From Candidatus Gastranaerophilales bacterium (GTDB lineage Bacteria; Cyanobacteriota; Vampirovibrionia; Gastranaerophilales; Gastranaerophilaceae), in NCBI GenBank assembly GCA_944326565.1, contig CALVEL010000008.1:2003-66002 (forward strand): a stretch of DNA of 64,000 bases, written 5' to 3'. Both the position numbers and the translations under genes were made by a program. Positions 26,685-33,369 of this stretch are shown in pieces; the first letter of the stretch is position 1; each line of letters begins with the position of its first letter. Below the pieces are notes generated by a model. It did not search any database and had not been told where the DNA came from. It worked only from the letters and a program-made list of their open reading frames with translations.

Positions 26685-28019
26685 TTACTCTTCATAAGTT
26701 CGGAGCTCTTCAAGATAATCTTTTTCAAAATCATTTAAATTGCCTGTTTTTTCTTTTTCAGTTAATGAAACAAGGTCATTTTTTCTTTTTATTTTTAGTT
26801 CATCTAACAAAAGTTGTTCTTTATTGGTAATTATTCCTAATTCTTCTTTACCGCACAAAATTTGGAACATATTTTGTTTGTTGTTGACTAAGTTTGATAT
26901 TTTGTTTTGTCTGATAATCATTTTTGGAGTAAAAGATCTTGGTGTATGTATAAGCTCATAATACAAAACTTCTTTACCTGATATTGAGTTTTTAGGATTT
27001 ATAGATTTTAGGCAGCTTGTTAAAGCTATTTTATACAAGTCATCATAGTTGAAAGCACCTAGTTGTTCATCTGTTTTGCAAATTTTATTTATTTCATTGT
27101 AATCATTATCCGTAAAGTTTTTTTTATTTAAATCTTCTAAAATATTTAATTTTCGAGCCAAACAATCGGGATAATCTTTAATATTTATTAGACTGTCTTT
27201 GCATCTGGTGATATTTTCAATTAATATATTTGCATTTTCATTATCTTGCGGGCGGGGAATTTCGAATTTATCAATTTTACCTTTGCGAAAATCAGGATGT
27301 ATTAAATGTGGGAAGTTTGAAGTAAACAGAAAAGTTGAGCCATATCCACCTGAATTTGGTGGAGAGGCACAATTATCCAATAAACTTTTAAAATATTCTA
27401 TATTATTTACATTATTGGAACTTTTTAAAAATTCAATATCTTTTACACTATAATTAAAATCTGTCAGTCTTTTGGCTTGATTGTAGGTCATACCTAAAAA
27501 ATTTTCTATATTATTTAAGTAAATGATAGACTTTTTGCCGGTTTCATTATAGTAATTTTTTGCTTGTTCTAAAATATCTCTTACCTTTAAAATAAAATTT
27601 TCATTGGTTTCATTAGAAAGATCAAATATTTTATTTCCCGCTGTTTGGTATGCAATTTCACGTGTTGTATTTGCAAAACATTCCACGAGCCTGTTTTCAG
27701 GGCCAAAAAGCATTACACCATTTGGAATGTAAATTGATGTATTTTTAAATGATTCTATAAACGGTTCTGTAAAATGTTTTGCCAGATTATCCTTTTCTTT
27801 TGAAAAGCCTACAATTTTTTTATCAAAATATTGTATTACTTTGTTATATGTTTCTGAGCCTGTAAAATTTATTTGAGGTAAATATTGATTTAAGAGGACA
27901 AATTCATTGTTTTGTGTTAAATGAGACTTAACGTTGCGGTTTTTATTTTCAGAGTTATATGTATATGAAATATTTTTACCTTTTTGTGGATTTTGAAAGT
28001 AAATTGGAGATATTTTCAT
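26685..28019 (-). CDS. leader-bearing AAA+-like protein with degenerate Walker motifs (pseudo-ATPase paralogue of 30484..32475)
   Basis: Aligns by eye with the neighbouring AAA+. IPNGVMLFGPENRLVE aligns with LPNAVVLYGATGVGKTE, IIYLNNIENF with LLIDEAEKY, and FLFTSNFPHLIHPDF with LFITTNYPHLIDQDL. Leader MKISPIYFQN...INFTGS. Confidence 0.65.
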   Translation of the reverse strand: MKISPIYFQNPQKGKNISYTYNSENKNRNVKSHLTQNNEFVLLNQYLPQINFTGSETYNKVIQYFDKKIVGFSKEKDNLAKHFTEPFIESFKNTSIYIPNGVMLFGPENRLVECFANTTREIAYQTAGNKIFDLSNETNENFILKVRDILEQAKNYYNETGKKSIIYLNNIENFLGMTYNQAKRLTDFNYSVKDIEFLKSSNNVNNIEYFKSLLDNCASPPNSGGYGSTFLFTSNFPHLIHPDFRKGKIDKFEIPRPQDNENANILIENITRCKDSLINIKDYPDCLARKLNILEDLNKKNFTDNDYNEINKICKTDEQLGAFNYDDLYKIALTSCLKSINPKNSISGKEVLYYELIHTPRSFTPKMIIRQNKISNLVNNKQNMFQILCGKEELGIITNKEQLLLDELKIKRKNDLVSLTEKEKTGNLNDFEKDYLEELRTYEE

Positions 28020-28042
28020 ATTATCTTTTACCTTGTAGAGAT

Positions 28043-29038
28043 TTAGTTGCTATGAAAAGAATTTTTTAGATTATTTGCATTTAACTTACAAACATCAAAG
28101 AGTTCTTGCACCTTAGGATTTTGAGCGAAAGGTGCATCTTTTTTTCTAATGAGTTCATATTCAAGAGCGCTTATAGAATCAACATCCCATAAGAAATTTT
28201 TACCTTTTTCAAAAGCAATTTTAATCATATTTTCAGAATTAAGCACCCCAGGTTTTTGCAGGATATCAATGAAAGAGAGTCCGTCCCCAGTATCATCAGG
28301 GGTATAAACTGCCAATTTTTCGAATAAATCAAAAACTTTTAAAGAGGTTTTATTATCAGGATAATCAGGGAAAGCTATAGCCAACGAAGAAAGGGTATTC
28401 ATCCCTGTATCATGAGAGAAATCTCTTTTGCCGAATTTCTCAAAAATATTAAGAGCATCATCAAAAGAGGCTTTGTTAAAAGCAGCTCTTTCGAAAAGAG
28501 TATTCCAAAATATTTCTTTATCTTGAGCAGAGGCATTATTAGGGAAAATCATACCATCAACTGCAGAAATATTATTATTCTTAATTTTTTCTAAAATAGG
28601 GTGATAAACATTTTTGAACCAATTATGGTATTGATTTTTTTCTTTTTCCGACATGAGGTTATAGTCTTTGAAAGCATTTAATTGTATTTGACAATCATCA
28701 AATTGTTTTTTTAAAGGGTTGATATTAGAGTTATTATCTTTTACGATATCAGGTTTTATTGGTTTTTCTATAATTGTCTCTATTCCTGTATCTTTCGGGA
28801 TATCAGGTTTTATTGATGATTTTTTGGGTAATCGTCTATTTATTAAAAAGTAAATAATAGTTAATAAAACTGTACTCAGTCCAATACCTATGCCTATTTT
28901 AGCTTTGTTAGAAATGGTGTTTTCTTTTTCAAATTTATCAGATACTGGTTGTTCGGTTTTTGTAGACTGAATCTTTAGGCTTGGCTTAATAGGTTCTGAT
29001 AATTGTATATTTGATATATTATTAATTCCTAAAATCAT
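28043..29038 (-). CDS. TM-anchored orphan protein sharing a ~230-aa C-terminal module with the next gene
   Basis: TM segment IGIGIGLSTVLLTIIYFLI. The C-terminal part is nearly identical to that of 29100..30467. Confidence 0.65.
   Translation of the reverse strand: MILGINNISNIQLSEPIKPSLKIQSTKTEQPVSDKFEKENTISNKAKIGIGIGLSTVLLTIIYFLINRRLPKKSSIKPDIPKDTGIETIIEKPIKPDIVKDNNSNINPLKKQFDDCQIQLNAFKDYNLMSEKEKNQYHNWFKNVYHPILEKIKNNNISAVDGMIFPNNASAQDKEIFWNTLFERAAFNKASFDDALNIFEKFGKRDFSHDTGMNTLSSLAIAFPDYPDNKTSLKVFDLFEKLAVYTPDDTGDGLSFIDILQKPGVLNSENMIKIAFEKGKNFLWDVDSISALEYELIRKKDAPFAQNPKVQELFDVCKLNANNLKNSFHSN
28077..28767. repeat. copy 1 of a ~691-bp near-identical tandem duplication
   Basis: Matches 29134..29824 at a constant offset of 1057 nt. 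I spotted two mismatches while reading parts of both copies, at 28092 (a vs g) and 28132 (t vs c). Confidence 0.9.
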
Positions 29039-32475: not shown

Positions 32476-32526
32476 AATCAATCCTTTTCTTGTTTTGTTT
32501 CTTTTAATTATAAAAAATTTTTATTA

Positions 32527-33369
32527 CTAATCATTAAGCATACTTGTATTTCCGTTGTATATTTTTTTAATAAATTTATTAAAAGGTTCCTTTTTTGAAA
32601 ATAAATTTAGTAAATTTGAGTTATATGGCGAATTCTTAAAAGGATTTTGTGATATTTTAATTGAATTTCTATCTAATTTTTCTATAATTCTTTTAGAAAT
32701 ATCACAAGCTATCAAGTCAAAAAGAGACGTTTCTGCATAATTACATATATTCTGTTTGGCAAGATTTCCATATTTTGTTTTGAATATATTAGTATTATTT
32801 GCATCATTTAATGCAACAATTTTATTGACACTTTTTTTAATCCCGTATTTATTTGATAAGTGTCCTTGATGAGCTGCATGAGAAAATTCATGAATAAAAG
32901 ATTCCAAAAAGAAATCAGAAGTCGTATTATTCATTTTATAATAATCATAATCACTTATTTCATTAATCATATGCCAGGGAAATTCTTTATTAAAAATAAT
33001 GGTTTTTGCAGGCATAATATTGTCATTGTTTTTATATAGCCGACATGGAAGAAAATTGGTAATCCCATAAATTTCAGCAAAATCTTTTCCTAACAAAAGT
33101 TCTGAAAAGTTTTTTACAAAAATATTTTCAGGAAAATCTATTTTTAAATGGAAATTCTTGTTTAAGCTTTTTATAAGTTCAGTAGTTTTTAATACTGACC
33201 AAGCTACAAATTTGTTGTTAGCAAAATCGACATTAATGCCCTGGTGGTTCATATAATGTTCTATGGCATTTGTATTTACATTACTTATTTCAGATACCAT
33301 TTGTTTTGTGAGACCGCCTGTATAGTATATTTTTTTGTTCTGAGAGTGACAATAATTATTAATTTTCAT
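32527..33369 (-). CDS. leader-bearing HExxH zinc metallopeptidase-like protein
   Basis: SFIHEFSHAAHQGH has HExxHxxxxxH spacing, as in metzincins. Leader MKINNYCHSQNKKIYYTGG. Confidence 0.6.
   Translation of the reverse strand: MKINNYCHSQNKKIYYTGGLTKQMVSEISNVNTNAIEHYMNHQGINVDFANNKFVAWSVLKTTELIKSLNKNFHLKIDFPENIFVKNFSELLLGKDFAEIYGITNFLPCRLYKNNDNIMPAKTIIFNKEFPWHMINEISDYDYYKMNNTTSDFFLESFIHEFSHAAHQGHLSNKYGIKKSVNKIVALNDANNTNIFKTKYGNLAKQNICNYAETSLFDLIACDISKRIIEKLDRNSIKISQNPFKNSPYNSNLLNLFSKKEPFNKFIKKIYNGNTSMLND

Follow-up and report, generated by a model that had tools for sequence, protein, structure and literature searches.

Gastranaerophilales are common uncultured bacteria of the human and animal gut that belong to the non-photosynthetic Melainabacteria, and most of the genes specific to this lineage are, to our knowledge, without a function. 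The stretch of DNA analysed here (the window, 64,000 nucleotides (nt) in full) lies on contig C8 of a Gastranaerophilales genome of 1.87 Mb on 14 contigs (genome G000), a contig with a G+C content of 28% as against approximately 32% across the remaining genome. The window holds a cassette of seven genes which is a co-inherited, movable functional unit specific to gut Gastranaerophilales, and not a run of random orphans. Five of the genes, on the minus strand, are labelled g1 to g5 in reading order and two neighbours, n6 and n7, complete the cassette; in what follows the genomes compared have labels beginning with G, related loci with L and contigs with C. No description of the cassette, or of the N-terminal leader that its products have in common, was found in the literature searched.

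Gene content and conservation

The first gene of the minus-strand series, g1 (32527-33369), encodes a zincin-like protein of 280 amino acids (aa) and is followed by g2 (30484-32475), an active-type AAA ATPase of 663 aa, by g3 (29100-30467), a soluble protein of 455 aa, by g4 (28043-29038), a protein of 331 aa with a single transmembrane helix, and by g5 (26685-28019), a predicted dead AAA paralogue of g2 with 444 aa. A preliminary description of this DNA had presented these five co-directional open reading frames as a possible operon, and both their coordinates and the gaps of 51, 16, 61 and 23 nt between g1 and g2, g2 and g3, g3 and g4, and g4 and g5 were reproduced exactly. Ribosome-binding sites of the AAGG(A) type lie upstream of g2 to g5, and a hairpin scan found no terminator-like hairpin in any of the four gaps. 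Scans for promoters and terminators stayed at the level expected by chance in AT-rich DNA, the promoter scan not rising above shuffled background. The spacing, the ribosome-binding sites and the synteny described below together suggest that g1 to g5 are co-transcribed as one operon. The start of g1 is 151 nt from that of the divergent gene n6 (33521-34573, plus strand; 350 aa), and the AT-rich region of 151 bp between the two (33370-33520) presumably contains the promoter of the operon, whilst the 3' end of g5 is 39 nt from a convergent LysR-type gene. The other border of the cassette is formed by n7 (34577-35386, minus strand; approximately 269 aa, start MKVQLITQSF), which is convergent with n6. 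There was no Pfam or PDB match for n6 and no significant one for n7, profiles included, a weak match of n7 to tape-measure proteins (7e-5) being judged compositional, and hhalign gave no homology across the families of g3/g4, n6 and n7.

This order of genes (n7, n6, g1, AAA, g3, g4, dead AAA) is syntenic in the genomes of six other species from three other genera, namely G162, G308, G285, G059, G053 and UMGS1686; the window and these six genomes span four genera, and the cassette proteins are 28-75% identical. G162 and G308 have the order in full; G285 has it with g5 inverted yet adjacent, G059 and G053 have it with g3 and g4 fused, and UMGS1686 has it without g4. The synteny of n6 extends to G162, G059, G308, G285 and L053 (the UMGS1686 locus), and that of n7 to the same genomes, n7 also adjoining g1 in other types of cluster. 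A self-contained module, as opposed to random orphans, had been proposed beforehand, with a survey of related genomes as one way to check it. The survey found homologues of all five genes syntenic elsewhere, and what had to be amended was the size of the unit, which with n6 and n7 comprises seven genes.

The distribution of the cassette is patchy. It is present in one of 11 genomes of the window's genus, the ten others having no orthologue of the AAA protein (one of them has only a weak AAA-domain match), and among 301 genomes of the family no more than 6 were found to have the C-terminal module shared by g3 and g4 (module M). From each genome to the next the cassette has other flanking genes, and with respect to UMGS1686 its orientation here is reversed, homology stopping just outside n7 (at 35459) and just outside g5. 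No flanking repeats and no cassette-specific recombinase were seen. Relatives of g2 were absent from phage, plasmid and IMG/VR collections and relatives of g1 from the phage collection, so that the cassette cannot be recognised as phage- or plasmid-borne. In genomes between which an ABC-F protein is 75-86% identical the cassette proteins are only 28-58% identical, which indicates that the cassette evolves fast. The DUF2971 gene region (18725-19643) and an "iteron-like" element region (41450-42007), which lie on either side of the cassette in the window, frame it directly in UMGS1686; the approximately 22 kb between them here thus represent a variable slot in which genes have been gained on both sides of the cassette.

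The g2 family also occurs in other types of cluster, including an AAA gene with one or two M-module proteins, n7 and g1 with three active AAAs and one dead AAA, and g1 with two AAAs. Of 201 genomes sampled from the order, 17 have a leader-type AAA as well as g1, and in 14 of these the two are no more than 10 kb apart, a count that is inflated by kinship, though several architectures are involved. The cassette is a defined, testable unit of seven genes from five unrelated families; its catalytic motifs are clear, and the dead subunit provides a natural control.

The protein families

The product of g2 matches the Pfam AAA family (PF00004) with 41.5 bits (cut-off 21.2; E 2.3e-10) and begins with a leader (residues 1-45), after which come a helical N-domain without annotation, reaching to about residue 240, an AAA core at approximately residues 246-470 and a family-specific C-terminal domain. 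Its closest sequence relatives in the PDB are AFG2/SPATA5, Cdc48/p97/VAT, Vps4/CdvC and NSF, and because these match with E values of only 1e-7 to 1e-5, g2 is regarded as a divergent classic-clade AAA. Like them it has Walker A and B motifs, an Asn at sensor 1 and, in the second region of homology, an Arg. These motifs are conserved across 14 orthologues and paralogues, with GATGVGKT as Walker A and LLIDEAE as Walker B in g2, so that the intact GATGVGKT and DEAE noted at the outset have found support from both the Pfam match and the orthologues; the sensor-1 Asn and the Arg finger were assigned by alignment only, of ITTNYPHLIDQDLMRRK to the ATNRP...LLRPGR region. Unlike the classic-clade proteins, g2 has a single AAA domain, N- and C-terminal domains of its own and the leader, and in its family a conserved insertion of approximately 30 residues lies in the region of pore loop 2. 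Pore loop 1 (aromatic-hydrophobic-Gly) is absent from all 32 aligned members of the family, in which this position is occupied by a short, acidic and variable segment (MSTLENDF and similar). As the canonical loop is missing, the family is more likely to act as an ATP-dependent switch or remodeller than as a threading, FtsH-like unfoldase.

Similarity of g5 to g2 is evident by BLASTP (2e-22; 29% identity over 231 aa). The two had been aligned by eye along the whole ATPase core of g2, and this alignment, far from collapsing, became stronger when profile was compared with profile (hhalign probability 100%, E 1.6e-49, 377 columns). It runs from just before the P-loop through the last C-terminal residues, and g5 therefore corresponds to g2 minus its N-terminal domain of approximately 200 residues. 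At the position of Walker A g5 has GPENRLVE and at that of Walker B IYLNNIE. The loss of both motifs, claimed from g5 itself, is general for the first: the P-loop Lys is gone from nine of nine g5-type sequences (variants GPENRLVE, GSESFAIN, GPETNVIN and GTSDDEIN). For Walker B it applies to most of them (LNNIE, LNNAE or IENAD) but not to the orthologues of G059, G053 and G285, which retain acidic residues (VVEEPE, VIDEPE and IKEPE). The sensor-1 region is retained in the g5-type sequences and the Arg in all but one of the nine. On this evidence g5, which belongs to a small unnamed family of 11 clusters, is a predicted catalytically dead paralogue of g2. The pairing of active and dead AAA is kept in every cassette of the G000 type, in a distant variant of the cassette (G055/G078) and in the clusters with four AAAs. 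The g2 family is thus a new branch of the classic AAA ATPases, one which is without canonical pore loop 1 and in which an inactive paralogue is regularly kept. A 406-aa database protein (P0160) from a metagenome contig of 2.3 kb is 100% identical to 55% of g5 and bears methyltransferase Pfam domains; it is either an artefact of chimeric assembly or a variant rearranged in another strain.

Heteromeric AAA assemblies in which active and inactive subunits or domains are mixed include the chloroplast Ycf2-FtsHi complex and the clamp loaders. The D1 rings of Pex1/Pex6 are a further example (PMC4490564). The pair g2/g5 resembles such assemblies in that a paralogue that has lost its motifs is retained beside the active one and inherited with it, the Arg-finger position being mostly kept. 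It differs in being bacterial, single-domain and lineage-restricted, and a ring of g2 and g5 is hypothetical.

No Pfam or NCBIfam match was obtained for g1. A profile search of 1.84 billion representatives yielded 318 clusters of relatives, nearly all of them stand-alone proteins of approximately 280 aa. The sequence HEFSHAAHQGH, on which g1 had been called a zincin, begins at residue 160 (HEFSH, residues 160-164), and in 97 sequences of the family H160, E161, H164, H167 and an acidic residue at position 218 (Glu in the family, Asp in g1 itself) are conserved at 90% or more. The last His of the sequence, however, varies among the relatives (H, N, R or D). The zincin assignment has accordingly been retained in the form HExxHxxH, but the spacing of metzincins (HExxHxxGxxH) has not, since their third His is not conserved. 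Weak matches to the Pfam family Peptidase_M90 (MtfA) were found in three of the 97 sequences, the g1 of the window matching none. An AlphaFold2 model computed on the 97-sequence alignment has a mean predicted local distance difference test (pLDDT) of 93.7 and a predicted template-modelling score of 0.91, with low confidence only in the first 20 residues (the leader); it replaced an earlier run on six sequences (pLDDT 56.8), which was discarded. In Foldseek searches with this model the best PDB match was anthrax lethal factor, which was not significant (E 0.55), and other zincins came next. The top matches in the viral library BFVD were phage "lethal factor" zincins (E 1.3e-4, probability 1.0, with template-modelling scores of just 0.34-0.52), with matrixin, IrrE-like and SprT-like proteins among the further ones.

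The g1 family thus shares the HExxH helix and the downstream acidic ligand with the MtfA (Peptidase_M90) and anthrax-lethal-factor-like (ATLF) zincins, and its best matches in fold are to zincins of the lethal-factor type, but it reaches no Pfam model in the case of g1, and it has an extra conserved His, the leader and a distribution confined to Gastranaerophilales. It was present in 56 of the 201 genomes of the order, a phylum-wide sample gave no member from outside the window's family, and loci were found only in genomes of Gastranaerophilales/Melainabacteria. The model and the conserved residues point to a new gluzincin-like HExxH...E family, presumably catalytic, with a fold that probably comes nearest to the lethal-factor/MtfA type. 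The g1 profile has a second, weak match (E 9.5e-7) elsewhere in this genome, to a leader-bearing open reading frame of 236 aa (G000:C1:197618-198328, MKIRSLLMQNVNIIKYSG...). At two loci, L062 and L076, g1-family genes are adjoined by arrays of alternating leader-bearing families, one of approximately 470 aa (start MINPINISTNP...) and one of approximately 230-275 aa, and up to three copies of the pair follow one another, as if it had been amplified in the manner of a cassette.

The product of g3 is made up of the leader, a private N-domain (N3) and module M at the C-terminus, and that of g4 of the leader, the transmembrane helix (residues 46-68), a Pro/Lys linker and module M. Neither M nor N3 had a Pfam or PDB match, profiles included. 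That the two genes share a module had been recognised beforehand, and the likeness proved to be very strong, with approximately 250 C-terminal residues common to both (E 3e-174). At the DNA level a tract of g4 (28093-28767) and one of g3 (29150-29824), both on the minus strand at an offset of 1057, differ at one of 675 nt. A pair of g3 followed by g4 is also carried by G162, G308 and G285, and within each of these genomes and the window the two M modules are 90-99% identical, but between genomes identity is approximately 30-47%. This contrast argues for concerted evolution by recurrent gene conversion and indicates that g3 and g4 are an old pair that has been homogenised; the near-identical stretches in the window would be the conversion tracts. 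It is an unusually clean example, in which neighbouring genes have kept one domain identical in four lineages. A recent tandem duplication was considered and rejected, because the pair recurs in other genomes and the modules have diverged between genomes. The loss of g4 in UMGS1686, the closest relative, is as expected from recombination between the g3 and g4 repeats.

The arrangement of an AAA gene followed by a soluble and then a transmembrane-anchored protein with a shared C-terminal module recurs in G055/G078 and in G100/G343. In G055/G078 the two proteins lie between AAA and dead AAA and their modules are 43% identical. The fused protein of G059 and G053 comprises N3, an internal leader-like stretch, a transmembrane helix and M. 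The net charge of g4 is +4 after the helix compared with +1 before it, and from this positive excess module M is predicted to lie on the cytoplasmic side.

Leader and genomic surroundings

The partners of g1, g2 and g5 had been described as leader-bearing, and the leader in fact occurs on all seven cassette proteins. It consists of M-K/R/N-I/V-x-x-I at the N-terminus and I/V-x-F-x-G/A 10-50 residues further on, just before the folded part (MKINNY...IYYTGG in g1), and in the alignments of the families its Met and Phe vary little or not at all. A loose form of this pattern is matched by 28 open reading frames of the genome, of which approximately 20 look genuine; nine of the 28 are on C8, a contig that makes up 3.6% of the genome. 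None of these open reading frames has a hydrophobic core of the Sec type. In having a short hydrophobic N-terminus with a Phe motif 10-50 residues on, and no Sec signal, the leader may be likened to the bipartite signal of early flagellar type III substrates, but its motif is F-x-G/A and the families that carry it are not flagellar. The cassette ties this lineage-wide leader to what is proposed below to be an ATP-driven machine.

The flagellar export gate FlhA is encoded in the genome, in which VirB4 and a contractile sheath were not found. All 201 genomes sampled from the order have FlhA, however, and its co-occurrence with the cassette is therefore uninformative. The genome has, in addition, a second open reading frame of approximately 500 aa (G000:C6:133228-134262), whose match to FlhA (E 3e-48) is confined to the cytoplasmic half at the C-terminus. 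Each of the five other cassette genomes that were checked likewise has this extra copy, and many genomes of the order have two full-length types of FlhA (approximately 1e-260 and 1e-218).

In G162, G059 and G308 the cassette abuts known or candidate defence genes. Septu-like PtuA and PtuB proteins (1e-170 and 5e-69), two GmrSD-like proteins, PDC-S21 (DUF4917), PDC-M30A, a Dam methylase and a DrmD-like SNF2 helicase with a type III methyltransferase are among its neighbours. In the window BREX and hipBA lie approximately 8-10 kb away. Its occurrence in defence islands makes the cassette a fair candidate for a hitherto unknown system of defence or conflict.

Proposed function and rival readings

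The reading that we favour, and to which about an even chance of being correct may be given, is that of a membrane-tethered AAA/pseudo-AAA assembly with a zincin partner in an accessory role of the conflict type. The physical complex, its membrane topology, its catalysis and its biological role are things that we infer from the sequences. The seven products would act as one multi-protein, ATP-driven assembly, in which active g2 and g5, with its P-loop Lys and Walker B acid lost and its sensor-1 and Arg-finger positions kept, would probably form a hetero-oligomer. The assembly would be held at the inner membrane by g4, its module M facing the cytoplasm and serving as the dock for the AAA pair, and g3 would be a soluble partner that either pairs or competes with g4 through M. 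A processing or output function, as a peptidase, might fall to g1, and a pathway that reads the lineage-wide leader may handle all seven proteins. As the cassette is patchy, fast-evolving and re-inserted, mostly within defence islands, its role is read by us as a conflict function, which might be anti-phage, anti-mobile-element or inter-microbial.

A number of findings weigh against this reading. None of the seven proteins had a PADLOC match, sub-threshold P-loop matches apart, and none of the cassette proteins had a match in PHROGs. The leader is carried by approximately 20 otherwise unrelated proteins in this genome and elsewhere by ankyrin, tetratricopeptide repeat (TPR) and enzyme-like proteins, and its spread looks more like that of an exported-effector repertoire than that of a cytoplasmic machine. 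Many g1-family genes have other leader-bearing neighbours and no detectable AAA neighbour. The absence of g4 from UMGS1686 and the position of g5 on the opposite strand in G285 imply, moreover, that neither the exact composition of the cassette nor co-transcription is obligatory.

A broader proposal, which is tentative and less likely than not, is that the cassette is the type example of a hitherto undescribed class of multi-protein systems that are tagged by the leader and occur in gut Melainabacteria. In these an AAA/pseudo-AAA motor, a zincin and a membrane adaptor would act on, or be delivered by, a new leader-dependent pathway. Such systems might serve either anti-phage or delivery and effector functions, and module M, which homogenises itself, would be a dimerisation domain that keeps their specificity.

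It is rather unlikely, though this is one of the two main specific forms that a conflict function could take, that the cassette is a new anti-phage or abortive-infection system with the AAA pair as sensor or motor, the zincin as an activating protease and g4 as the membrane effector. The defence genes that flank it directly in three other genomes, the BREX and hipBA genes nearby, the patchy distribution, the fast evolution and the differing contexts of insertion are what such a system would lead one to expect. Defence, however, is poorly fitted by the universal leader, which many proteins encoded outside defence islands also have, and by the lack of a PADLOC match; related AAA/g1 clusters adjoin housekeeping genes, and seven genes with no nuclease or NADase-type effector among them would be unusual.

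The products could instead be leader-tagged effectors or toxins exported by a lineage-specific route, possibly that of flagellar type III, and active outside the cell or within a target cell, with their clustering a matter of co-regulation and co-mobility and not of a machine in the producing cell; this, the other main specific form, we consider improbable. A bipartite leader on every product and a Sec signal on none would agree with export, as would the fast-evolving families with expanded paralogues, the presence of FlhA in a genome from which VirB4 and a contractile sheath are missing, and the nature of leader-bearing neighbours (TPR and deiminase-like proteins here, ankyrin-repeat and double-AAA proteins in other genomes). 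The universality of FlhA removes the force of one of these points, and an ATPase depends on ATP. That a dead paralogue has been conserved along with it, and with anchored and soluble partners in a fixed order, suggests a multi-subunit structure, which it would be hard to export unfolded and rebuild, and this conserved layout with an ATPase fits export poorly. Immunity-like small genes, furthermore, were not found in the cassette.

A third possibility, that of a split FtsH-like AAA protease for the quality control of membrane proteins, with g4 as anchor, g2/g5 as unfoldase and g1 as peptidase, is very unlikely. As in FtsH, a membrane anchor, a classic-clade AAA and a zincin are combined, here encoded side by side, but the parts are on separate genes, canonical pore loop 1 occurs in no member of the g2 family, g1 is not M41-like and the cassette is patchy and accessory where FtsH is universal. 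The notion that these are unrelated orphans which merely happen to be co-directional has nothing in its favour beyond missing annotation and is refuted by synteny across four genera with changing flanks.

Two further leader-bearing genes follow the cassette in the window, outside the conserved synteny. The first, n8 (35537-37513, plus strand), encodes a TPR protein of 658 aa with a 31%-identical paralogue on contig C7, and the second, n9 (37520-38647, minus strand), a protein of 375 aa that has GGIHCMC at its C-terminus. Upstream of the distant AAA/dead-AAA variant at L024 (G055:C10), at 7590-12739, there are likewise two more leader-bearing genes, one for a 982-aa ankyrin-repeat protein and one for a 734-aa double-AAA protein, the second domain of which has a canonical pore loop (SKYVNE).

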